Source: Bacteroidia bacterium (lineage in GTDB: Bacteria; Bacteroidota; Bacteroidia; Bacteroidales; UBA932). Taken from it: a stretch of DNA of 64,000 nucleotides. Positions 29,769 to 41,613 of this stretch are shown here, piece by piece. The translations under genes were made by a program, and so were the position numbers. Location: assembly GCA_030529945.1 (NCBI GenBank), contig JAUMVX010000002.1, positions 17,160-81,159 on the forward strand, given 5' to 3'. How positions within the stretch are numbered: the stretch's first letter is position 1; each line of letters starts with the position of its first letter. The notes beneath the pieces are model-generated. The model was not told the origin of the DNA. It did not search any database and worked only from the letters and a program-made list of their open reading frames with translations.

Positions 29769-30650
29769 ATGTTGCCGATCGTAACAGTAAAAGCCGAACT
29801 TACGGCTGAGGATTGCCTCCGCATCGTGGAGCGCCATAAAAGAACATTCACCTACCCCATCCACCGCCACACGACGGTGGAACTGAACTTCGTGCAGCAC
29901 GGCAAGGGCGTGCGCAGGATAGTGAGGGACAGCAGCGAAGTGATCGGAGAGTACGACCTGTCCCTTATCGGCGAGAACGTGGAGCACGTATGGGAGCAGG
30001 GCGAGTGCAGCTCCTCCGATGTCCGCGAAATCACCATACACTTCTCCGCAAACCTTTTCGACGGGAATTTCATCGGGAAGAAACAGTTCGCCTCCATCAG
30101 GAAGATGCTCGAGAATTCCCGGCACGGACTGGTGTGGGGGATGGACACCATAATGGAGGTTTACAGTCTGCTGAACGCTCTCGCCTCCGAGCAGAACGGA
30201 TTCGAGCAGTTCCTGCTGTTCCAGAAGATGCTTCATATACTGTCGAACTCTCCGTCCCGGCAGCTCACTTCAAGTCCCGAGCCCAAGGCGGTTTCTCCGG
30301 CAACTCAGGAGAATGATCCGATAGCCCTCGTGGCGGAGTATCTCAAGGACCATTACACCAGCGAGGAGGTGAACCTCACATACCTGTCCAGACTTGCGGG
30401 GATGAGTCCGACCGCGCTCAGCCGCGTGTTCAAACAGAAAAAGGGCATCACCCTGTCCGCTTACCTCATAGACTTGAAACTCCAGAACGCCGCGCGCCGC
30501 CTCATAGATACGGACGAGAAGGTCGCGGACATCTGCAAGTCCTGCGGATTCAACAACCTGTCGAATTTCAACCGCACCTTCAAGGCCCGCAAAGGCAAGA
30601 CCCCGAAAGATTACCGCAGTCTCTACAAGAAGAATAAAATCACCGTCTGA
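29769..30650 (+). CDS. AraC-family transcriptional regulator (cupin-type N-terminus)
   Basis: YPIHRH...ELNF; C-terminal double HTH ending GFNNLSNFNRTFKARKGKTPKDYR. Confidence 0.92.
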   Translation: MLPIVTVKAELTAEDCLRIVERHKRTFTYPIHRHTTVELNFVQHGKGVRRIVRDSSEVIGEYDLSLIGENVEHVWEQGECSSSDVREITIHFSANLFDGNFIGKKQFASIRKMLENSRHGLVWGMDTIMEVYSLLNALASEQNGFEQFLLFQKMLHILSNSPSRQLTSSPEPKAVSPATQENDPIALVAEYLKDHYTSEEVNLTYLSRLAGMSPTALSRVFKQKKGITLSAYLIDLKLQNAARRLIDTDEKVADICKSCGFNNLSNFNRTFKARKGKTPKDYRSLYKKNKITV

Positions 30651-32179
30651 TGAAACACACCTTCCCCATTATGGCCGCAGTCCTGGCCTGTGCCGTCTCC
30701 TGTACGGACAGTAAAGTGAATACCCTCGACATAATTCCCTGTCCTCTGGAGATGACTCCCGCATCCGGGGTTTACGACCTGTCCCGGGGAGAGGTGACAT
30801 TCACGATAGACAGCCTGATGGCCCCCGAGGCCTACACCCTCAAGATTACGCCCCGGAAAGCCGTGGTGAAAGCCGGAAGCGAGGCGGGCGTTCTCTATGC
30901 CCGGCAGACTCTGAAACAGATCACAGTCGAGGACGGAGGAGCGCTGCAGTGCTGCGAAATTTCGGATGAGCCGCGCTTCGCCTGGCGCGGACTGCTGCTC
31001 GACTGCGCAAGGCATTTCTACACTGTCGAGCAGGTGAAGAAAGTCCTCGACATAATGGCTTACTATAAGCTGAACCGCTTCCACTGGCATCTGACGGATG
31101 ACCACGGATGGCGGATAGAGATAAAGAAACATCCGCGCCTTGTGGAGGTCGGGGCTTTCGGAGATGTCGGTTCACATTCAGTCCCGGACCCCAATCTTGT
31201 GGGCGAAATCCTCTACGAGGGCTATTACACGCAGGAAGACATCAGAGAGGTCGTCTCCTATGCATCGTCCCTGGGCATAAGCGTGATTCCGGAGATAGAT
31301 ATGCCCGGACATATGACTTCCGCGCTCGCCGCATATCCTCAGCTCGGCTGCACCGGAGGACCCTACAAGGTGGTCAATGTCGTGGGGCCGCGCGGCAAGG
31401 GGCTGGGCAAGGAGAACCTGTGCATCGGGAACGATGAGATCTTCGACTTCATCTCCGACATTCTCGACGAGGTCTTTCCTCTTTTCCCGGGCGAATACTT
31501 CCACATAGGCGGGGACGAGTGCGTGCCGGACAGATGGAACGCCTGTCCGAAATGCCGCAAACGCCTCCGCGACGAGGGTCTGGAGAGCGGGGAGTACTCG
31601 GACGCGCAGCTGCTCCAGAATTATTTCACCCGCAGGGTGCAGAAGATGCTTCAGGAGCGGGGGCGCAAGATAATCGGCTGGGATGAGATTCTGGACGGAG
31701 AGCTGGAGGACGGCGCCACGATTATGTCCTGGAGAGGGACTTCGGGAGGAAAGCGTGCGGCGGAGCGCGGACTGGACGCTATTATGACCCCTATCCGCCA
31801 CTGCTATCTGGATTTTCGCCAGAGCGATGACCTCGAGCACGAGCCTATCGCGCTGAACGGAACAGTTTCCGTGGATTCAGTCTATGATTACGAGCCGCTC
31901 GAGGGGCTCACGGAAGAGGCCGCCCGCCATATCATAGGCGTGCAGGGCAATCTCTGGTGCGACGTGGTTTCCACGCAGGAATACCTGGAATATATGCTTC
32001 TGCCGCGTCTGGCAGCCCTGAGCGAAGTCCAGTGGTGCGCTCCGCAGAACAAGAACCGCGAGAGGTTCCGCTCCGCTATGGACGCTCATCGCCGCTACTA
32101 CGAGGAGCACGGCTACGTCTATGCCAAGCACCTCTGGGGCATCATCGGCCTGCCGGGCCACGAGTACCGCATTCAGTAA
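30650..32179 (+). CDS. GH20 beta-N-acetylhexosaminidase (probable lipoprotein)
   Basis: PRFAWRGLLLDCARHF, FHWHLTDDHGWR, PEIDMPGH, HIGGDEC catalytic DE; TGATG overlap with AraC. Confidence 0.93.
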   Translation: MKHTFPIMAAVLACAVSCTDSKVNTLDIIPCPLEMTPASGVYDLSRGEVTFTIDSLMAPEAYTLKITPRKAVVKAGSEAGVLYARQTLKQITVEDGGALQCCEISDEPRFAWRGLLLDCARHFYTVEQVKKVLDIMAYYKLNRFHWHLTDDHGWRIEIKKHPRLVEVGAFGDVGSHSVPDPNLVGEILYEGYYTQEDIREVVSYASSLGISVIPEIDMPGHMTSALAAYPQLGCTGGPYKVVNVVGPRGKGLGKENLCIGNDEIFDFISDILDEVFPLFPGEYFHIGGDECVPDRWNACPKCRKRLRDEGLESGEYSDAQLLQNYFTRRVQKMLQERGRKIIGWDEILDGELEDGATIMSWRGTSGGKRAAERGLDAIMTPIRHCYLDFRQSDDLEHEPIALNGTVSVDSVYDYEPLEGLTEEAARHIIGVQGNLWCDVVSTQEYLEYMLLPRLAALSEVQWCAPQNKNRERFRSAMDAHRRYYEEHGYVYAKHLWGIIGLPGHEYRIQ

Positions 32180-32221
32180 TGCGGACGGCTCCACGTCGAG
32201 AACAGGATCACCCCTCAGACA

Positions 32222-32259
32222 TAAAAGATTAGGCGACACCCTTCCCCAAAGGTGTCGCC
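32222..32259 (-). terminator. Intrinsic terminator of the candidate sRNA (may also end the GH20 transcript)
   Basis: Minus strand GGCGACACCTTT-gggg-AAGGGTGTCGCC-TAATCTTTT. Confidence 0.7.
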
Positions 32260-32311
32260 CGGTATATAAAACGAACTTAACAAATAGACACGAAATGATG
32301 TTTCAAATGTC
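32222..32311 (-). ncRNA. Candidate trans-acting small RNA (~90 nt)
   Basis: Own promoter (TACATTTG at 32324-32317, TTG 19 nt upstream), AU-rich 5' part with no ATG, and a 12-bp terminator hairpin with U-tract. Confidence 0.55.
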
Positions 32312-32502
32312 CACTGCAAATGTAGGCACTATTTTTTAATATCCAAGCTTTTTCTTTCGAAATTTTAAAACGATTTTCACTTAAAATTTTTAACCCGTTG
32401 AAAGACTTCACTATATATCGAAAAGTTTTTTTCGTTTCAAGCGTTATTTTTCGCCCGACCCTCGGGAGACTCCGGCGGTGGGGTTGAAAAATGTTGTATT
32501 AT

Positions 32503-32534
32503 TTTGCACGATTATGAAAATTGTGCTACATTTG
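32503..32534 (+). promoter_or_regulatory. Canonical Bacteroidetes promoter for the GH9 operon
   Basis: TTTG (32503-06), N20, TACATTTG (32527-34). Confidence 0.78.
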
Positions 32535-32563
32535 CAGAAGGTTACACTAAAATTATCACCAAA

Positions 32564-35080
32564 ATGGGTACGCTCAGGAATCTGCTCGTGACGGCGCTGC
32601 TCGCAGCGTCCGCCGCTTTTTCAGCCGCCGCAGGCGAATGGATACGCATAAACCAGGTCGGTTATCTTCCGAACGCCTCTAAGGTCGCAGTCTATATCAG
32701 CAACTCTCCGCAGCCGCGTGAAGTCACTTCGTTCACGGTAATCGACGCGGCAACCGGCGGGACCGTTTACATTTCCGCCCCCGGTGACATCCGCAATACC
32801 GGAGCCACAGGAGAGCTTACCGCTACATTCAGACTGAATTTTTCTCCCCTGACCGCCGAGGGAACTTATTATCTGGTGGCGGACGGGGTCAGATCCCCGG
32901 AAATCAGAATCGGCACCCGCGTCTATGACGGCTCCGCCGATTTCGTCCTCAACTATATGCGTCAGCAGCGCTGCGGATGGAATCCGTTTATGAAGGACAG
33001 CTGCCACGTCCACGACGGCTACATCCGCTATCATCCGGAAAAGGAAGGGCAGCACATAGACGTGCGCGGCGGCTGGCACGACGCTTCTGACTGTCTTCAG
33101 TACACCACCACCTCCGCGAATGCCATCTACCAGATGATGTTCGCCTATCAGCAGAATCCGGAAGCCTTCGGTGACGAATACCTCTCGGACGGGACTCCGG
33201 GCAGCAACGGCATTCCGGACATCGTGGATGAAATCTATTGGGGACTCGACTGGCTCGACAGGATGAATCCCGAGCCGGGCGAATTCTATAACCAGATAGC
33301 CGATGACCGCGACCACGTGGGTATGCGCTTCCCGGCACGGGACCACGCCGATTACGGCTGGGGTCCGAACAACGGGCGCCCCGTTTACTTCATCACCGGC
33401 GAGCCTCAGCAGAGATACAAGGGACTGAACGCCACTCAGGGCGCGGCCAGCACCGTCGGCAAGTTCGCCTCCGACTTCGCCCTCGGCGCGAAGATCCTCG
33501 CGCCGTTCTATCCGGAATTCGCCGCGAAGATAGGCGCTAAGGCTGCGGACGCCTATCAACTGGGCATAGACAAGCCGGGAGCCTGCCAGACAGCGTCCGT
33601 TGTCTCTCCTTATATATATGAGGAAGACAATTGGGTGGATGATATGGAGCTCGGAGCCGTGGAAATGTACCACAGGACAGCGGACGAGAGATACCTCGCC
33701 CAGGCTATCGAATACGCCCGCCGGGAACCGGTCACGCCGTGGATGGGGGCCGACAGCGCAAGGCACTACCAGTGGTATCCGTTTATGAATATGGGGCATT
33801 ACCATCTCGCGAAGGACGGTAACGCTAAAGTCTCCCGGGAATTCATCCGCAATATCCGCTCGGGCATCTCCCGTACTTTCGAGAAGGCTGACGGAACCCC
33901 GTTCCTCTACGGCATCCCGTCCATCTGGTGCTCGAATAACCTGACCACCGCTATGCTCACCCAGTGCATCCTCTACCGTCAGCTGACCGGCGACGAGACC
34001 TATAAGGAGATGGAAGGCGCACTGCGTGACTGGCTTATGGGCTGCAACCCTTGGGGTGTATGTATGATAGTGGAACTGCCCGGCGCGGCGGTCTATCCGA
34101 CCCAGCCGCATTCGTTCATTCCCAAGTTCGCTCTGGGCAACACCACCGGCGGCCTCGTGGACGGTCCTGTTTACCCGACCATATTCGAGAGCCTGAAGGG
34201 TGTGAATATGGAAGGCGGCATAAACTATATGGAGGTGCAGCCGGGCGTGATGGTCTATCACGACAGCATTCACGACTACTCCACGAATGAGCCGACTATG
34301 GACGGTACGGCATCCCTTACCTTCCCTCTCTCGGCCTACGAAAAGGAAGGCGCACAGCTGCGCGGCATAGTGGAAGATGAAAACGGGGTGGTCACCCGCG
34401 TGAACACCGGCGAGAAGAAAGTGTACCTCGTCTTCACGGCACATTTCAGCACGGGGGACAAGGGGCGTTTCGAGAATTTCGACGGAGTGGTACCTGTACT
34501 GAACACATTGAAGGCCAAGGGAGTGAAGGGCTCCTTCTTCCCTACGGGAGAGTGCTTCCGCCAGAGCAGATACAGAAATGCCATAAAGCGCATCATCCGC
34601 GAGGGCCACTATCTCTCGGCTCACTCCGACAAGCACTTGCAGCTCTGCAGCGGGAAGCGCAGTCTCGTGACCGCCGATTCGCTCATCCGCGACATCCGCA
34701 ATATGGAAGCCGAACTTGGCTCCTTCGGCCTGGAGAAAGCACAGTACAGCTGGATGATTCCTCCGTACGAGAGCTGCGACGCCTTCTCCGCCTATATACT
34801 TAAAGGTCTGGGATACAAGCTTGTGAATCCTACTCCGGGCCTCGTGACAAGCCACGACTGGATGGGACCGGACTCTCCGTCCTATCTGAGCGCCGCGACT
34901 ATGGTGCAGAACATCAAGGACTTCGATGAGAGCTACGGACTGAACGGAGCCGTCATCCTCATACACGCGATGAATTATCCGGACAGGTCCGCGGACGACC
35001 GGGTCTATAGCCATCTGGACGAAATCATCGACTACCTGCGCGGACGCGGATATGATTTCGGTACTTTCAAGGAACTATAG
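32564..35080 (+). CDS. Secreted GH9 glycoside hydrolase fused to a C-terminal CE4/NodB-like polysaccharide deacetylase
   Basis: Signal peptide from 32564; WIRINQVGY, GGWHDASD, TNEPTMD (GH9); HSDKH, PPY, SHDW, ILIH (CE4-like). Confidence 0.85.
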   Translation: MGTLRNLLVTALLAASAAFSAAAGEWIRINQVGYLPNASKVAVYISNSPQPREVTSFTVIDAATGGTVYISAPGDIRNTGATGELTATFRLNFSPLTAEGTYYLVADGVRSPEIRIGTRVYDGSADFVLNYMRQQRCGWNPFMKDSCHVHDGYIRYHPEKEGQHIDVRGGWHDASDCLQYTTTSANAIYQMMFAYQQNPEAFGDEYLSDGTPGSNGIPDIVDEIYWGLDWLDRMNPEPGEFYNQIADDRDHVGMRFPARDHADYGWGPNNGRPVYFITGEPQQRYKGLNATQGAASTVGKFASDFALGAKILAPFYPEFAAKIGAKAADAYQLGIDKPGACQTASVVSPYIYEEDNWVDDMELGAVEMYHRTADERYLAQAIEYARREPVTPWMGADSARHYQWYPFMNMGHYHLAKDGNAKVSREFIRNIRSGISRTFEKADGTPFLYGIPSIWCSNNLTTAMLTQCILYRQLTGDETYKEMEGALRDWLMGCNPWGVCMIVELPGAAVYPTQPHSFIPKFALGNTTGGLVDGPVYPTIFESLKGVNMEGGINYMEVQPGVMVYHDSIHDYSTNEPTMDGTASLTFPLSAYEKEGAQLRGIVEDENGVVTRVNTGEKKVYLVFTAHFSTGDKGRFENFDGVVPVLNTLKAKGVKGSFFPTGECFRQSRYRNAIKRIIREGHYLSAHSDKHLQLCSGKRSLVTADSLIRDIRNMEAELGSFGLEKAQYSWMIPPYESCDAFSAYILKGLGYKLVNPTPGLVTSHDWMGPDSPSYLSAATMVQNIKDFDESYGLNGAVILIHAMNYPDRSADDRVYSHLDEIIDYLRGRGYDFGTFKEL

Positions 35081-35083
35081 GTT

Positions 35084-36037
35084 ATGGCAGTTATTGCGAT
35101 AGATCTGGGCGGAACCAAAGCCCTCGGAGCCGTCTTCGACGGCGAGGGAAATAAGGTCAGGGAGGAAATCCGTTATCTGAACGGAGCCGGGGGAGACGAA
35201 GCTGCGGACTTGACCGCCGAACTGGTCTCCTCACTCAAGGATTCCTATGCCTCTGAGAGCATAGAGGCCGTCGGGGTATGCGTCCCGGGAATCGTGTATT
35301 CGAAAGATGACACGGTCTGGGCTCCGAATATCCCCGGCTGGAGCAGATACCCGCTTAAAAGGCGCATCGCCGAAGCGGCAGGCCCCGGCATAGAGATAGC
35401 CATAGAAAGCGACCGGACCTGCTACATCCTCGGAGAAGTGTGGAAAGGAGCCGCGAGAGGCTGTGAGAACGCCATCTACATCGCCGTGGGCACGGGAATC
35501 GGAATGGGGATTCTCGTCGACGGACGGATATTGCACGGCGCGAACGACATAGTCGGCGCCTGCGGCTGGATGGCTCTCCAGTACCCGTATGTCGAAGATT
35601 ACATCCCGACAGGCTGCTTCGAGCATTACGCCTCGGGAAACGGCATCGCGACGCAGATCCGCAAAGCCCTGCGCTGCGCCCGCAACTACAGCGGAGTGCT
35701 GAGCTGCAAGCCGATAGAGGACGTGGACTCGCACGACGTGTTCTCCGCATACGATCAGGGAGACCATCTCGCGACCAAGGTGCTCGACAAGGCGGTCGAG
35801 ATGTGGGGAATGGCCGCGGCCAATGTCGTAAGTCTCTTCAACCCGGAGAAGGTCATTTTCGGCGGCGGCGTTTTCGGGCCTGCCGGCAGGTTCCTGGGAC
35901 GGATTTACGATGAAGCCTGCAAGTGGGGCCAGCCTATAGCGATGCGGGACGTGCAGTTCTGCGTTTCGCAGGTGCAGGGAGAGGCCGCCCTGTACGGCTC
36001 GGCCTACCTCGCCATAAGAGCTGCAGGCTCCGAGTAG
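35084..36037 (+). CDS. ROK-family sugar kinase
   Basis: IDLGGTK, ESDRTCYILGE, VGTGIGMG, GCFEHYASG; no N-terminal HTH. Confidence 0.88.
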   Translation: MAVIAIDLGGTKALGAVFDGEGNKVREEIRYLNGAGGDEAADLTAELVSSLKDSYASESIEAVGVCVPGIVYSKDDTVWAPNIPGWSRYPLKRRIAEAAGPGIEIAIESDRTCYILGEVWKGAARGCENAIYIAVGTGIGMGILVDGRILHGANDIVGACGWMALQYPYVEDYIPTGCFEHYASGNGIATQIRKALRCARNYSGVLSCKPIEDVDSHDVFSAYDQGDHLATKVLDKAVEMWGMAAANVVSLFNPEKVIFGGGVFGPAGRFLGRIYDEACKWGQPIAMRDVQFCVSQVQGEAALYGSAYLAIRAAGSE

Positions 36038-36060
36038 GACAATGAAAAGAAGTACAATAT

Positions 36061-37215
36061 ATGAATAAAGGATATTCGACCCCCAAGGTATTCATCGCCG
36101 CCTGCGCGGGAATGTCGTTTTTCGGAATGGCGATGCTCTCGATGGCCCCTATTCTCGGAAGACTGAACGAGATGGTCTCGGGGGCCAACGCTCTGCCCTC
36201 CACTATGTCTCTGGGCATCCTTCTGGGGACAGTGGTTTTCGGCCCGGTAGTGGACCGCTTCGGCTACAAGTCGCTGATGGTCGTCGCATCGGTGATGGCT
36301 CTGGCCGGAGTACGGGGGCTTGCGGGCTTTCAGGAGATTCTTCCTCTCCACATCTCCATATTCTGTCTCGGCTTCGGCGGCGGAGTCCTTAACGGAGCGA
36401 CCAATGCTCTGGCCTCGGACATCTACGATGATGACAGAAGGGGAGGGCGGATAGCTCTGGTGGGCTCGTTCTACTGCATCGGGGCGCTCCTCTGGACTTT
36501 TATGAACCTCTTTACGGAGGACTTCACGATTCCGCTGGACATCGTCTCCGCAGTGATGGGCTTTTCCATAGCATATTTTCTCTGCATCAGCTTCCCGGCG
36601 GCCAAGCCTTCCGAGGCAGTATCTTTCAGGAAAAGCGTAGGCCTGCTGAAATATCCCGCCCTGCTGCTGCTTGCGCTCGTGCTCTTCTTCGAAAGCGGTT
36701 TCGAGGGGGCGCAGGGTAACTTCAGCGCATTGTTTATGGAGAGGGGGAAAGGATTGGACGCGACAGCGGCCAAACTGGCTATGACGATTTTCACGGTGGG
36801 GATGCTCGCGGGCAGGCTCCCGCTCGGCAAGGTACTCTCGCGCATAGGAAATCTCGGTGCGCTTTACGTCTATCTGGGTATAGGGCTTGCGGGCGTGCTG
36901 CTGCTGTCTTTCGCGTCTTCGACCCCGCTCTGGGCGTACCTGTCTCTGGGACTCATCGGTTTCGGAATCGCCGCCACCTATCCGGTGATTCTGAATTATG
37001 TCGGCAGTGCGTTCAGAAATCAGTCGGGCACCGCGATGTCCATAGCCCTCTTCGTCGGTCTGCTCGGGCAGTTCACCTGTAATAAGCTTGCGGGCGCGGC
37101 TTTCGATGCGGGGGCTTACGCCTTCCTCCCGATAATGCTGTCCTCCGCCGTGTTATGTATGATGGTCATAGCGCCCCTCGCCGTGAAAGCGGCTTCCAAG
37201 ATAAAGAATCAATAA
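36061..37215 (+). CDS. MFS sugar transporter
   Basis: About 12 TM segments; motif A GPVVDRFGYK. Confidence 0.87.
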   Translation: MNKGYSTPKVFIAACAGMSFFGMAMLSMAPILGRLNEMVSGANALPSTMSLGILLGTVVFGPVVDRFGYKSLMVVASVMALAGVRGLAGFQEILPLHISIFCLGFGGGVLNGATNALASDIYDDDRRGGRIALVGSFYCIGALLWTFMNLFTEDFTIPLDIVSAVMGFSIAYFLCISFPAAKPSEAVSFRKSVGLLKYPALLLLALVLFFESGFEGAQGNFSALFMERGKGLDATAAKLAMTIFTVGMLAGRLPLGKVLSRIGNLGALYVYLGIGLAGVLLLSFASSTPLWAYLSLGLIGFGIAATYPVILNYVGSAFRNQSGTAMSIALFVGLLGQFTCNKLAGAAFDAGAYAFLPIMLSSAVLCMMVIAPLAVKAASKIKNQ

Positions 37216-37236
37216 TCAACAATAAAACAATTCATT

Positions 37237-37998
37237 ATGTTAGCTAAAGAATGGAAAAAGAATGCCATCAGCGTGATGGACGAAATCGAGTCGACTCAGA
37301 TGGAACAGATCAGGAAAGTGGCGGAGGTTATGGCGGACTGCATCCAGTCCGGTCATCTCGTGCACACTTTCGGCTGCGGCCACGCCAATCTCCCCATCGA
37401 GGAAATGTATCCGCGCATCGGCGGTATCGTGGGTTTCCATCCGCTCTGCGAGCTTCCGCTCACCTTCTTCACCCATATCACGGGAGAAATGGGAATTAGC
37501 CAGTTCCTCTGGCTCGAAAGGGCGGAGGGCTACGGCCAGGCCATAATGTCCAGCTGGAATTTCGAGAAGGAAGACCTGCTCTGGATTTTCTCGCACACGG
37601 GAGTGAACGCGGTGAACATCGATGTGGCGAACGAGGCCCACAAGAGAGGGATGAAGGTCATCGTCTGCGGCTCCGCCAGCCGTACCGGCGACAAGAAGCC
37701 TCGTCATTCCGGCGGAAAGAACCTCTTCCAGATTGCTGATTATGTGGTCGATACCTGCTGTCCGCTCGAGGACGCGTCCGTTCCGCTGAAGAATCATTTC
37801 GACAAGATAGGTCCGCTCTCCACTATGGCCTCCGTGACCTGCGTATGGATGATAATCACCACAGTCTGCGAGATTCTCGCCGACAGGGGAGTGAAGCTGC
37901 ACATCAATCCTTCCCACAACGTTCCCGGCGACACCACCGCGAGAGAGCGTCTGGACGCGGCCATCGAAGCCTATAAGGCAAGCGTGAGACGCTGCTAG
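37237..37998 (+). CDS. SIS-domain sugar-phosphate isomerase-like protein (UPF0309-like)
   Basis: VHTFGCGHANLP, IFSHTGVNAVNIDVA, YVVDTCCP, GPLSTM. Confidence 0.8.
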   Translation: MLAKEWKKNAISVMDEIESTQMEQIRKVAEVMADCIQSGHLVHTFGCGHANLPIEEMYPRIGGIVGFHPLCELPLTFFTHITGEMGISQFLWLERAEGYGQAIMSSWNFEKEDLLWIFSHTGVNAVNIDVANEAHKRGMKVIVCGSASRTGDKKPRHSGGKNLFQIADYVVDTCCPLEDASVPLKNHFDKIGPLSTMASVTCVWMIITTVCEILADRGVKLHINPSHNVPGDTTARERLDAAIEAYKASVRRC

Positions 37999-38002
37999 GG
38001 CG

Positions 38003-39160
38003 ATGTCCGGGTTCAAGATAATCCGAGGAGGGAAAGTTTTTTCCGGAGGGGGCTTCGTCCGGGCCGACGTCATCATAGACGGCGGCGCCATAACTGAAGT
38101 CACCTCCGCCCCCGTCGAAGTGGAGGGGAGTGAATGTATCGATGCCTCAGGGATGTATGTAGTCCCGGGAGGCATCGATATCCATATCCACGGAGGCGGC
38201 GGGCACGAGTTCATCGAGGGAACCGAGGAGGCCTGGCGCGCCGCAGTGCGCGCCCACGCCTTCTATGGGACTACTTCCCTTCTTCCCACCCTTCCGGCCT
38301 GTCCCGTGGAGACGATCCGCAAGGGCATAAGCATCTGCGAAAAGCTGGTCTCCGAGCCGGACAGCCCGGTCCTGGGACTGCATCTGGAGGGGCCTTACCT
38401 GAATCCCGCGAAGGTCGGAGCCATCATCCCCGAATACGTCACGCCGCCTGTAAAGGAGGACTATGAGAGCCTGCTTGACTCCACTTCCGTCATCAGGCGC
38501 TGGGATGCCGCGCCGGAACTCCCCGGTATGGAGGAATTCGGCCGCTGCCTCGCACGACACGGCGTTCTGGCTTCCATAGCCCATACCGTGGCGGAGTATC
38601 CTCAAGTGAAGAGGGCCTTCGACGCCGGCTTCACTCACGCCACTCATTTCTACAATGCGATGACTTCCGTGCACAATGTCCGGGAATACAAGCACGAGGG
38701 TACCGTGGAGAGCGTCTATGCGATTCCTGAGATGACCGTGGAGGTCATAGCGGACGGGAAGCACGTGCCGCCGCTCATTCTGAAGCTCATCTGGATGGTG
38801 AAAGGCGCGGACCGTACGGCCCTCGTAACTGATGCGTTGGGCTGCTCCGCAGGTGCTTCCACCTTCATCTTCGACCCGCGTGTCGTCATTCACGACGGAG
38901 TCTGCAAGCTCTCCGACCATTCCGCTCTGGCGGGCAGCATCGCCACGATGGACCGCCTGATAAAGACCGTGACCGAGGCTGGAGTCCCGTTCGCGGACGC
39001 CGTCAGGATGTCTTCAGAGACACCCGCACGCATTCTTCACGTGGAAGGCCGCAAGGGCGGCATCTCCCAGGGCAAGGACGCGGATATAGTACTCTACGAT
39101 GCGGACATCTCGCTGCGTCTGGTGATGCAGGCGGGACGCATTATCCGCAACGAACTCTGA
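38003..39160 (+). CDS. nagA: N-acetylglucosamine-6-phosphate deacetylase
   Basis: PGGIDIHIHG, HLEGPY, AHT, THFYNAM, DGKH, VTDA, GSIATMD. Confidence 0.88.
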   Translation: MSGFKIIRGGKVFSGGGFVRADVIIDGGAITEVTSAPVEVEGSECIDASGMYVVPGGIDIHIHGGGGHEFIEGTEEAWRAAVRAHAFYGTTSLLPTLPACPVETIRKGISICEKLVSEPDSPVLGLHLEGPYLNPAKVGAIIPEYVTPPVKEDYESLLDSTSVIRRWDAAPELPGMEEFGRCLARHGVLASIAHTVAEYPQVKRAFDAGFTHATHFYNAMTSVHNVREYKHEGTVESVYAIPEMTVEVIADGKHVPPLILKLIWMVKGADRTALVTDALGCSAGASTFIFDPRVVIHDGVCKLSDHSALAGSIATMDRLIKTVTEAGVPFADAVRMSSETPARILHVEGRKGGISQGKDADIVLYDADISLRLVMQAGRIIRNEL

Positions 39161-39301
39161 GACCCGCCGCCTCCGCAGCCGGTATAAAAACGTTTTTTGC
39201 CGCAGAAAGTCGCGCTTTTGTGGTGAAATCTCCGCCGCGTTTGGCGAAATCTGACGCTTTGGGTCAAATTCTGGATAGCTTTGCCGGCAAATCCAAATAC
39301 T

Positions 39302-40186
39302 ATGAAGATTACCGGAAAGAATGTGCTGATTACCGGCGGAGCGTCGGGAATCGGAAAGTTGATGGCGGGCATCTGTCTCGAGAAGGCCGCCTCCAACGTC
39401 ATCATCTGGGATGTGAACCAGGCTAATCTCGACCGTGCGGCCATAGAACTCGGAACGGTGAGACCCCGCATCGGTGGAGCCGCGCACGGACAGCTGCACT
39501 GCTATGCGGTCAATGTGTCGGACAGCGATACCATAGCGTCTTCATATCTGAAAGTGAAACATCAGGTCGGGGAGGTGGACATCCTCATAAACTGCGCGGG
39601 CGTAGTGCGCGGAAACAATACCTTCGACGCCCAGACGATCCAGGACATCCGCCTGACTATGGACGTGAATGCTACAGCCCCGATGCTGGTGGCTCTCCGG
39701 ATACTCCCGGATATGCTCCGGCGCGACAGCGGCCATATATGCAATATAGCCTCTGCGGCCGGTATGCTCGGAATGCCCAGACTGTCAGTGTATTGCGCGA
39801 GCAAATGGGCGGTGATAGGATGGACAGAGTCTATGCGCGTGGAGCTGAAACAGGCCCGCAGCAAGGTCAGAGTCACCACCGTCGCCCCGTATTTCATTAA
39901 CACCGGAATGTTCGACGGAGTGCATTCGAAGATATTCCCGATACTCAAGCCCGAAAGGACGGCGAAAAAGATAGTCAAGGCCATCGAAAAGGGCAAATCC
40001 TTCAAGGGCATCCCCTTCTCGTACCACTTCATAAGAAGCTGTCAGGCGCTCCTGCCGAACGTCCTCTTCGATTACATATTCGGAAAGATATTCGGCATAT
40101 ATTCCGTGATGGACCGTTTCACGGGAAGAAAAGAGAGCCCGGCTCCTAAAAATGCGGCGCAGCCGTTCACAAGAAAAGCAGTATAG
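39302..40186 (+). CDS. Short-chain dehydrogenase/reductase (retinol-dehydrogenase-like subgroup)
   Basis: Start MKITG at 39302; ITGGASGIG, NCAG, NIASAAG, YCASK. Confidence 0.9.
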   Translation: MKITGKNVLITGGASGIGKLMAGICLEKAASNVIIWDVNQANLDRAAIELGTVRPRIGGAAHGQLHCYAVNVSDSDTIASSYLKVKHQVGEVDILINCAGVVRGNNTFDAQTIQDIRLTMDVNATAPMLVALRILPDMLRRDSGHICNIASAAGMLGMPRLSVYCASKWAVIGWTESMRVELKQARSKVRVTTVAPYFINTGMFDGVHSKIFPILKPERTAKKIVKAIEKGKSFKGIPFSYHFIRSCQALLPNVLFDYIFGKIFGIYSVMDRFTGRKESPAPKNAAQPFTRKAV

Positions 40187-40188
40187 TT

Positions 40189-41559
40189 ATGGAAAACACC
40201 CCGGAAGAACGCATAAGGGAGATTTACGAAAAGCAGCGTGCATATTTCCGCAGCGGAGCCACCCTCAGCACGCAGTTCAGACGCGACAGCCTGAAGGCAT
40301 TCGAAAAGGCCGTGCGCAAATGGGAGCAGCCGCTGTGCGACGCCCTCTGGAAAGACCTCCACAAATCCTACGAAGAGGCATATCTTACCGAAGTCAGCAT
40401 TCTGCTCGGCGAACTCCGCACTCATATCCGCAAGCTGCGCAGCTGGGCCGCGCCCCGGCGCAAGTCCACGCCCTTGAAGATGTTCCCATCCTCCAGCAGG
40501 ATAGTGGCCGAGCCTCTGGGAAACTCGCTCATCATTTCTCCCTGGAACTATCCGGTCCAGCTGCTTCTCACTCCGCTTGTGGGGGCGATTTCAGCCGGCT
40601 GCACGGCTCTCCTCAAGCCCTCGCCCTATGTCCCGACAGTGTCCGGGGTCATAGAGGAAATGATAGCGGAAACCTTTCCCGAAGAATACATCGCCACAGT
40701 GCAGGGGAACAGGGAGGTGAACACCGCTCTGCTGGACTTGCGCTGGGATATGATCTTCTTTACGGGAAGTCCCTCTCTGGGCCGCGTAGTGATGAGCGCC
40801 GCCGCGAAGAACCTGACTCCCGTGGTGCTCGAACTCGGAGGCAAAAGCCCCTGCATCATAGACCGTGACGCGGACTTGAAGATTGCAGCCCGGCGGGTGG
40901 CCTGGGGGAAGGCCCTGAATGCCGGCCAGACCTGCATCGCCCCGGATTATCTTATGCTCCACGAAAAGATCAAGGACGAGTTCCTTGCATACCTGCGCGA
41001 GGAATTCACCCGTCTTCTCGGCGAGAATCCGCAGAAAACCCGCCATTTCGTGAGGATAGTCAGCGACAAGGCCTTCGACCGCCTGAGCGGCTATCTTTCG
41101 GACGGCAAGGTGCTGTTCGGAGCGCATACGGACAGGCGGGAGCGCTACATCGAGCCTACCGTACTCGACCCTGTCAGCCCCGACAGCCCGATAATGCAGG
41201 AAGAAATCTTCGGCCCCATCTTCCCTGTGCAGACATTCGGAAATCTCGACGAGGTGATAGAGTTCGTGACCTCCCGAGAGAAACCCCTGGCACTCTACTA
41301 CTTCGGCAAAAATGGAGATAAAGTGCTGAAACACACCTCTTCCGGCGGGGCCTGCATAAACGACGTCATTATGCATATCGCAAATGAGAACGTTCCTTTC
41401 GGCGGAGTCGGCAATTCCGGTCTGGGCAGCTACCACGGAAAACTCAGCTTCGACGCGTTCACCCACTACAGGGCCGTGATCACCACTCCCGCCCGTTTCG
41501 ACGTGCCGCTGCGCTATATGCCATATCGGATGTTCGCCCTCGTGAAGAAATTCCTGTAG
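40189..41559 (+). CDS. Aldehyde dehydrogenase (ALDH3-like)
   Basis: SPWNYP, FFTGS, LELGGKSP, NAGQTCIAPDY, EEIFGPIFP, KPLALYYF. Confidence 0.93.
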   Translation: MENTPEERIREIYEKQRAYFRSGATLSTQFRRDSLKAFEKAVRKWEQPLCDALWKDLHKSYEEAYLTEVSILLGELRTHIRKLRSWAAPRRKSTPLKMFPSSSRIVAEPLGNSLIISPWNYPVQLLLTPLVGAISAGCTALLKPSPYVPTVSGVIEEMIAETFPEEYIATVQGNREVNTALLDLRWDMIFFTGSPSLGRVVMSAAAKNLTPVVLELGGKSPCIIDRDADLKIAARRVAWGKALNAGQTCIAPDYLMLHEKIKDEFLAYLREEFTRLLGENPQKTRHFVRIVSDKAFDRLSGYLSDGKVLFGAHTDRRERYIEPTVLDPVSPDSPIMQEEIFGPIFPVQTFGNLDEVIEFVTSREKPLALYYFGKNGDKVLKHTSSGGACINDVIMHIANENVPFGGVGNSGLGSYHGKLSFDAFTHYRAVITTPARFDVPLRYMPYRMFALVKKFL

Positions 41560-41575
41560 AGGAGATCGAAAATAT

Positions 41576-41613
41576 AAGATTGGCCGCTGCGCTCGCAGCG
41601 GCCAATCTTTTTT
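41576..41613 (+). terminator. Intrinsic terminator after ALDH
   Basis: AAGATTGGCCGCTGC-gctc-GCAGCGGCCAATCTT-TTTT, perfect 15-bp stem. Confidence 0.88.

Follow-up and report, generated by a model that had tools for sequence, protein, structure and literature searches.

What would a glycoside hydrolase family 9 (GH9) protein fused to a carbohydrate esterase family 4 (CE4) domain do among genes of N-acetylglucosamine (GlcNAc) catabolism? The question is raised by a gene run of an uncultured gut Bacteroidia bacterium (Bacteroidales, UBA932; assembly GCA_030529945.1), located at positions 29769-39160 of a 64,000-nt stretch of contig JAUMVX010000002.1 (positions 17,160 to 81,159, forward strand) which is called the window here. 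The run encodes an AraC-family regulator, a GH20 β-N-acetylhexosaminidase, the GH9-CE4 fusion, a ROK-family sugar kinase, a major facilitator superfamily (MFS) transporter, a SIS-domain protein and the GlcNAc 6-phosphate (GlcNAc-6P) deacetylase NagA. The reading that we favour, with a probability of about 0.6, is that this accessory, horizontally mobile gene set serves the use of amino sugars from β-1,4-linked oligomers of GlcNAc and glucosamine (GlcN), of the chitin or chitosan type, and that the oligomer is deacetylated before it is cleaved. This reading is best supported because of the gene context and not because of the membership of the enzymes in particular families.

Profile searches with Pfam and NCBIfam, evaluated with curated cut-offs, bore out the gene set, order and coordinates given in the first-pass annotation. 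All genes lie on the plus strand. The gene of the AraC-family regulator (293 aa; 29769-30650; Pfam HTH_18 and HTH_AraC) overlaps the start of the GH20 gene (30650-32179; Pfam Glyco_hydro_20, E 5.5e-112) with its stop codon by 1 nt, and the two genes are predicted to be translationally coupled. The GH20 protein, a predicted lipoprotein, has a lipoprotein-like N-terminus (MKHTFPIMAAVLACAVSC) and is most similar to 6Q63 among solved structures (E 4e-134). The fusion gene (32564-35080; 838 aa) is followed by the genes of the ROK kinase (317 aa; 35084-36037; Pfam ROK, E 2.7e-44), the MFS transporter (384 aa; 36061-37215; Pfam MFS_1), the SIS protein (253 aa; 37237-37998; SIS_2 in Pfam, UPF0309 or PRK02947 in NCBIfam) and NagA (385 aa; 38003-39160; TIGR00221). 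The gaps within this operon (3, 23, 21 and 4 nt) are those of 3-23 nt that had been claimed. NagA exceeds the TIGR00221 equivalog cut-off (251.5 bits versus 225.65), and its gene is the only nagA detected in the assembly, being the sole tblastn match.

The substrates and reactions that we infer for the GH9, CE4, ROK, MFS and SIS proteins would make up the following route. The GH20 lipoprotein would trim terminal GlcNAc, the CE4 domain of the fusion would take off the N-acetyl group in the periplasm and the GH9 domain would cut the GlcN-containing linkage, yielding GlcN and GlcNAc. The monosaccharides would be brought in by the MFS transporter and converted to their 6-phosphates by the ROK kinase, and NagA would convert GlcNAc-6P to GlcN-6P. 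The UPF0309 SIS enzyme would then act on an amino-sugar 6-phosphate, most likely converting GlcN-6P to fructose 6-phosphate and ammonia. The AraC protein is the probable regulator.

The pairing of the GH9 and CE4 functions is not confined to the window. The two are encoded by separate adjacent genes in locus L087 (Cyclobacteriaceae) and in L133 and L136 (L-numbers are locus labels and C-numbers are contig labels of this assembly) and are fused in the Bacteroidales. This Rosetta-stone pattern, with adjacency in at least three lineages, argues that GH9 and CE4 act together. At least 436 species representatives show the fusion architecture, with Bacteroides clarus, B. heparinolyticus, B. muris and Mediterranea among them, and it recurs across thousands of protein clusters. 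The ROK, MFS and SIS genes form a conserved trio across the Bacteroidota, as seen in the ortholog loci that were fetched; the MFS gene is clearly placed between the other two in 10 of 12 of these loci, L129 and L139 being incomplete. Orthologs of the SIS protein (61-71% identity) are spread over several classes and families and are present in 13 of 401 Bacteroidota genomes. This GH9 subfamily accompanies them in 11 of the 13, compared with 43 of the 401 genomes overall, often on a different contig.

The order fusion-ROK-MFS-SIS is kept in at least eight related species, only where the fusion is at least 79% identical to that of the window. The operon comes in three variants. In the first (the window, L003 and L011) it includes NagA and has an AraC-GH20 pair close by; in the second (L009, L010 and L099) NagA is joined by AraC and by a NagZ-like GH3 of only 390 aa; in the third (L005-L008) it runs straight into a SusC-SusD pair, beyond which a locus that is long enough (L098) shows a GH18 gene. 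In L003 and L011 the AraC and GH20 genes travel together as a pair, and the operon is also flanked by an AraC gene in L009, L010 and L099. SusCD is joined to the module in L031 and L150, GH18 and SusCD genes lie near the trio or the module in L085, L139 and L150 as well as in L098, L031 and L130, and in L130 the trio neighbours both the fusion and the GH18 gene. The top solved matches of the GH18 proteins from L150 and L085 are chitinases and not endo-β-N-acetylglucosaminidases (ENGases), and an N-glycan reading of the GH18 and SusCD neighbours was rejected since these tested proteins are chitinase-type and not ENGase-type. The nagA gene is adjacent to the SIS gene in the trio loci L099, L129, L131 and L132. 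The synteny comparison thus links the module to chitinase-type GH18 with SusCD, to NagA, to GH20 or NagZ-like GH3 and to NagX-like genes. The GH2 protein beside GH9 in L129 was considered as a CsxA-type glucosaminidase and rejected because it is glucuronidase-like.

Within its genus, the SIS gene is present in only 2 of 13 genomes, which indicates that the module is accessory. In L012 (516-5359), the fusion is 87% identical and genes of a short-chain dehydrogenase/reductase (SDR) and an aldehyde dehydrogenase (ALDH) follow directly, with no ROK, MFS, SIS and NagA genes between, so that L012 and the window differ cleanly by the absence or presence of the ROK-to-NagA cassette.

The fusion carries a type I, Cys-free signal peptide, followed according to Pfam by an Ig-like CelD_N domain, the GH9 domain and a CE4/NodB-like domain, and is predicted to be a periplasmic bifunctional protein. 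Its start is most likely the ATG at 32564, which was taken in preference to the TTG at 32504, and the reading frame stops at 35080. CelD_N (aa 43-131; 65.8 bits) and the GH9 catalytic domain (aa 145-607; PF00759, 214.6 bits versus a cut-off of 27.7) are encoded by 32690-34384. The catalytic residues D173 and D176 in GGWHDASD and E576 in STNEP are invariant in the family alignment A1. Apart from exo-glucosaminidases, we know of no GH9 activity on amino sugars in CAZy. Exo-glucosaminidase is a documented GH9 activity and no structural basis is known in GH9 for a preference of GlcN over glucose (PMC6096475), so sequence alone cannot settle the specificity of the domain. An AlphaFold model built from a 14-sequence alignment reached a predicted local distance difference test score (pLDDT) of 64, with values below 50 over residues 134-184 and 494-580, the active-site loops; because the GH9 loops were poorly modelled, it was dropped as a route to distinguishing exo from endo action. 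Alignment-derived loop lengths are not diagnostic of the extended α1-2 and α9-10 loops by which the Vibrionaceae enzymes close the subsites beyond -1.

The CE4-like domain (34469-35077) matches PF01522 with 39.8 bits (cut-off 23.1; E 5e-10). Its His-His metal motif HSDKH is present, with H687, S688 and H691 invariant in the family alignments, and D640, D765 and H801 are kept, the last of them being the invariant His of motif 5 (LIH). Motif 1 takes the forms FTAA..DKADG or FTG(D/H)EFADG across the family, with a single acidic residue before the Gly, and contains a 9-residue insertion in the clade of the window fusion.

The ROK protein scored below the cut-offs of all equivalog models and, among solved structures, is nearest to glucokinases. 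In L132 and L150 the trio comes with two ROK genes, an arrangement that would fit separate GlcN and GlcNAc kinases and two monosaccharide products. The SIS protein matches only SIS_2 and PRK02947 (217 bits versus a cut-off of 135), outside PF01182 and the family of GlmS-isomerase-like proteins with two SIS domains. The Thermococcus-like SIS deaminase anticipated by the first-pass annotation was therefore not recovered: the protein is not of the GlmD/NagB-II type and belongs to UPF0309, the family of NagS, the GlcNAc-6P dehydratase of Streptomyces. Its solved relatives are BH3325 (3CVJ) and NagS (9EOL), the latter with about 28-30% identity (E 4.6e-20). The residues equivalent to NagS H53, R64, E94, D179 and N228 are identical in all five positions. 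The sugar-contacting Ser54 and Ser91 of NagS are replaced by Ala and Leu in the window protein and by hydrophobic residues in all Bacteroidota orthologs, and the NagS loop SLSGRN reads SHTG(V/I)N, a change that is also conserved in all of them. The five essential residues together with the altered contacts argue for a phosphosugar enzyme which would deprotonate its substrate at C2, this substrate being other than that of NagS. Deamination of GlcN-6P is ranked first as the most likely reaction because it completes the pathway, has a precedent in the SIS fold and would make the trio alone a complete glucosamine route.

Several other SIS proteins and clusters were encountered. Paralogs with about 35% identity lie beside genes of ROK, a GntR/UTRA regulator, an amidohydrolase and GH89, which counts in favour of the amino-sugar reading; a MetE-like domain protein is also among the neighbours of such paralogs. 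A SIS_2 paralog (29% identity) lies beside a GH89 (NAGLU-like) gene in a genome of the same genus (G006; L147, 2123-5378). In L089 (3744-11555), where the SIS protein is 82% identical, the gene order is that of an 1144-aa protein with GH18, CE4 and chitin-synthase-like glycosyltransferase family 2 (GT2) domains, two MFS transporters, the SIS protein and a creatininase-family amidohydrolase. The representative of the 90%-identity protein cluster containing the SIS protein is a 382-aa MFS sequence, probably a clustering artefact of read-through MFS-SIS gene calls, and this look-up was not used.

A number of results weigh against the deacetylate-then-cleave route. The best solved relative of the GH9 domain is the endoglucanase 3X17 (E 4.7e-33), with the Photobacterium glucosaminidase 5DGQ reaching only E 3.8e-4, and the identity to Vibrio VC0615 (sequence from PMC6096475) is 26% over 231 residues (E 5e-8). 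Foldseek ranked the Vibrionaceae enzymes 17th to 23rd, which is weak evidence as the AlphaFold model was of low confidence. In the CE4 domain, motif 1 is FTAHFSTGDKGRFENFDG instead of the canonical TFDD, so that the Asp-Asp pair of catalytic base and metal ligand is missing, and motif 3 is IPPYE instead of RxPY, without the Arg and with an invariant Glu736. Most Bacteroides, for example B. clarus, have the fusion gene alone among housekeeping genes. We know of no UPF0309 member that acts as a deaminase. The SIS protein has a single characterised relative, NagS, to which GlcNAc-6P binds but GlcN-6P does not, and NagS homologues with about 30% identity were inactive on GlcNAc-6P (PMC12680351). 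The genome also contains two NagB-type genes, one of them long and next to a LacI gene, the other short, and NagB-type genes occur in 13 of 13 trio-bearing genomes. A necessity for the SIS protein to replace a missing NagB was rejected on this ground. The absence of nagB and susCD noted in the first-pass annotation is correct within 29769-39160, where no adjacent SusC/SusD pair marking a polysaccharide utilization locus (PUL) was found, and does not extend to the genome, which has both kinds of genes elsewhere. The amino-sugar route as first proposed is supported by the gene context (the GH9/CE4 pairing, the co-occurrence and the neighbours), whereas its GH9 enzyme is not a close relative of the Vibrio/Photobacterium type and its SIS enzyme is not of the Thermococcus type.

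Three other explanations have to be considered. One retains the GH9-CE4 steps and changes the intracellular part: the SIS protein and NagA would act in sequence on GlcNAc-6P or on N-acetylmannosamine 6-phosphate, by dehydration or epimerisation followed by deacetylation, as a NagS-like or otherwise new reaction. The conserved residues essential for NagS catalysis, the gap of only 4 nt between the SIS gene and nagA, their adjacency in the four trio loci named above and the presence of NagB in every trio genome, by which a second deaminase is not obviously needed, all agree with this explanation. We nevertheless regard it as unlikely, since the GlcNAc-contacting serines are replaced in all Bacteroidota orthologs, the homologues about 30% identical to NagS had no dehydratase activity (PMC12680351) and many trio loci have no adjacent nagA. 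Salvage of muropeptides appears rather improbable. In that case GH20, GH9 and CE4 would dismantle glycans of the GlcNAc-N-acetylmuramic acid (MurNAc) type, including N-deacetylated ones, the trio would import and phosphorylate MurNAc or a 3-O-substituted amino sugar and the SIS protein would be a MurQ-like etherase or lyase feeding NagA. UPF0309 does group beside MurQ among the SIS enzymes (PMC12680351), the DUF5009 proteins encoded next to GH9 bear a distant likeness to the MurNAc transporter of Tannerella (noted for NagX-type proteins in PMC9007349), PdaA and PdaB are the top NCBIfam models for the CE4 domain, the genome is without GlmS, and in Bacteroidales bacterium CF genes of a porin and a soluble lytic transglycosylase (SLT, GH23) come after the trio in one tight same-strand run. 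The tested GH18 neighbours, however, are of the chitinase type and occur with SusCD, and two canonical MurQ genes above the family cut-off are already present in the genome (in the regions 3128-15092 of C78 and 29520-31201 of C62), one of them beside a gene of a BadF-type MurK-like kinase, which weakens the MurNAc assignment of the trio. GH23 also includes chitinases, and we know of no GH9 enzyme that acts on peptidoglycan.

A system for plant or β-glucan oligosaccharides, with GH9 as an ordinary endo- or exo-glucanase, CE4 as an O-acetyl esterase, ROK as a glucokinase and NagA and GH20 as mere neighbours, is considered very unlikely. It could account for the endoglucanases, BoGH9A among them, as the closest solved relatives of GH9, for the xylan CE4 7AX7 as the best structural match of the CE4 domain, for the glucokinase-like ROK protein and for a B. 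uniformis-like fosmid with GH9 and CE4 genes near a GH9/GH31 PUL (PMC5238381). It does not account for the linkage of the module, in several families, to NagA, chitinase-type GH18, GH20 or short NagZ-like GH3 and NagX-like genes, or for the strong co-occurrence of GH9 and SIS genes (11 of 13 versus 43 of 401 genomes), and no GH5, GH31 or xylanase genes were found beside the trio in the loci examined. Deacetylation and subsequent cleavage of amino-sugar oligomers remains the reading that we prefer. A broader proposal can be made only tentatively and with some doubt: the Bacteroidota would hold a phylum-wide, undescribed deacetylative route for chitin or chitosan, with a new GH9 clade, unrelated to the Vibrio enzymes, acting on GlcN β-1,4 linkages together with a non-canonical, often fused CE4, and with the UPF0309 SIS protein as a new amino-sugar-6-phosphate enzyme, which would be a third GlcN-6P deaminase not orthologous to the others or else would work with NagA as a lyase or epimerase.

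The genomic background adds a possible anabolic role. GlmS was not found in this 2.28-Mb assembly, which is 95.7% complete. It is also missing from two congeners (96% and 98% complete) and present in four others; a connection between the loss of GlmS and the operon was rejected because the SIS gene, too, is missing from those congeners that have no GlmS. For its amino sugars the organism may have to rely on salvage or on NagB working in reverse. Since there is no GlmS and only a single nagA in the genome, the operon is probably a source of GlcN-6P for building the cell wall, too. Further genes of related function are scattered over the assembly: a 340-aa double-SIS gene, a NagX-like gene on contig C40 and a second amino-sugar PUL on C88 (6654-21678; L151). 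The latter encodes SusC, SusD, a 1001-aa pectate-lyase-fold protein, a NagB-like protein (249 aa), an MFS transporter, a GH18-ThuA fusion (583 aa) and a 796-aa CelD_N and GH9 protein with the motif GGWHDAGD, a combination that counts in favour of the amino-sugar reading. One of the MurQ genes is clustered with genes of two proteins with GH20-type motifs (HWHLTEDQGWR and GGDECP, recognized by eye), a transglutaminase-like lipoprotein and an MFS transporter, and the other lies directly after the kinase gene mentioned above.

The spacer between the GH20 and GH9-CE4 genes is 384 nt long and agrees with the second promoter claimed for the operon. It contains an exact Bacteroidetes-type -7 box, TAcaTTTG (32527-32534, plus strand), read directly from the sequence, which lies 30 nt 5' of the ATG of the fusion, and a hairpin with a 13-bp stem 3' of the GH20 gene (32231-32260; no strand assigned). 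The hairpin is terminator-like on the minus strand and the plus strand can form the same stem. An exact 12-nt inverted duplicate (32314-32325 and 32526-32537; CTGCAAATGTAG and CTACATTTGCAG) places the same -7 box on each strand of the spacer and thereby forms a putative pair of divergent promoters, one of them directed toward the hairpin. A search for operator repeats in the spacer yielded weak AT-rich repeats only. Downstream of nagA, SDR and class-3-like ALDH genes (39281-41559, plus strand; Pfam and NCBIfam) are followed by a strong hairpin terminator with a 15-bp stem (41576-41609; no strand assigned) that closes the same-strand gene run. The stretch from nagA to the SDR gene showed no terminator-like site, and SDR and ALDH may be co-transcribed with the operon, outside the conserved module. 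They are unlikely to be members of the pathway, as both are found directly 3' of the fusion in L012, where the cassette is absent.

Hundreds of Bacteroidales species from gut and rumen, cultured Bacteroides among them, have the GH9-CE4 fusion, which carries the annotation of a cellulase. Should its substrates be oligomers of the chitin or chitosan type, many GH9 counts taken as 'fibre-degrading' in gut metagenomes would be misread, and the gut route for dietary, fungal and insect chitin would gain defined genes. The trio would give UPF0309 its first physiological role outside Streptomyces. For the organism itself, which has no GlmS and a single nagA, the locus may be the supply line for cell-wall amino sugars. 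Literature searches found no publications on the GH9-CE4 fusion, the ROK-MFS-SIS trio or the Bacteroidota UPF0309 protein.

Parts of the proposed route have counterparts in known systems. Among the GH9 enzymes, the Vibrionaceae exo-β-D-glucosaminidases (VC0615, PBPRA0520 and VP2484; 6GDT, 5DGQ and 3H7L) have in common with the window protein the fold, an N-terminal Ig/Fn3-like domain, the Asp-Asp-Glu set and an amino-sugar catabolic gene context. The window protein differs in that it is secreted, carries a CE4 domain and is nearer to endoglucanases, its identity to VC0615 being as low as stated above. As a subgroup, the Vibrionaceae enzymes are defined by a preference for (GlcN)2 over (Glc)2 and by lack of activity on (GlcNAc)2. 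The locus appears to be partly like the Vibrio chitobiose system, with only a distant GH9 in common. CE4-type domains fused to glycoside hydrolases that act on a partly deacetylated GlcNAc polymer are found in PgaB and PelA. These process the cell's own exopolysaccharide during export and belong to other GH families, whereas the partners here (kinase, transporter and NagA) are catabolic. In L129 (5938-7338) and L132 (7214-8419), a DUF5009/HGSNAT-like, that is NagX-like, membrane protein is encoded right after a stand-alone GH9 without CE4, with nagA nearby. Genetic evidence from five bacteria shows that the use of glucosamine requires NagX (Price et al. 2022, PMC9007349), and this arrangement fits a release of GlcN in the periplasm; the operon of the window has the CE4 domain instead of NagX.

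The SIS protein shares with NagS (SCO4393; 9EOL) the UPF0309/SIS_2 family and the functional link to NagA. It lacks the synteny with dmdR1 and two sugar-contacting serines are replaced. NagS is restricted to the Streptomycetaceae, where its orthologs have at least about 59% identity and keep the nagS-dmdR1 synteny (PMC12680351); with its lower identity, Bacteroidales host and different neighbours, the window protein is not a NagS ortholog by this measure.

The same proposed order of steps, that is deacetylation of the oligomer, exo-glucosaminidase, phosphorylation of GlcN and a SIS-fold step on GlcN-6P, is found in the chitin pathway of Thermococcus and Pyrococcus. The enzymes there are the CE14 deacetylase Dac, the GH35 enzyme GlmA, an ADP-dependent GlcN kinase and the two-domain GlmD, whereas the locus uses CE4, GH9, ROK and a single-domain UPF0309 protein, so that every family differs and no enzymes are orthologous. 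In addition, the first two steps would be periplasmic here and are fused in one protein. The likeness to the Thermococcus route is one of analogy, not homology. The system most likely follows the known logic of deacetylating first and cleaving afterwards with a different set of enzymes, in which the functions of the GH9-CE4 fusion and of the NagS-family SIS protein are predicted ones.

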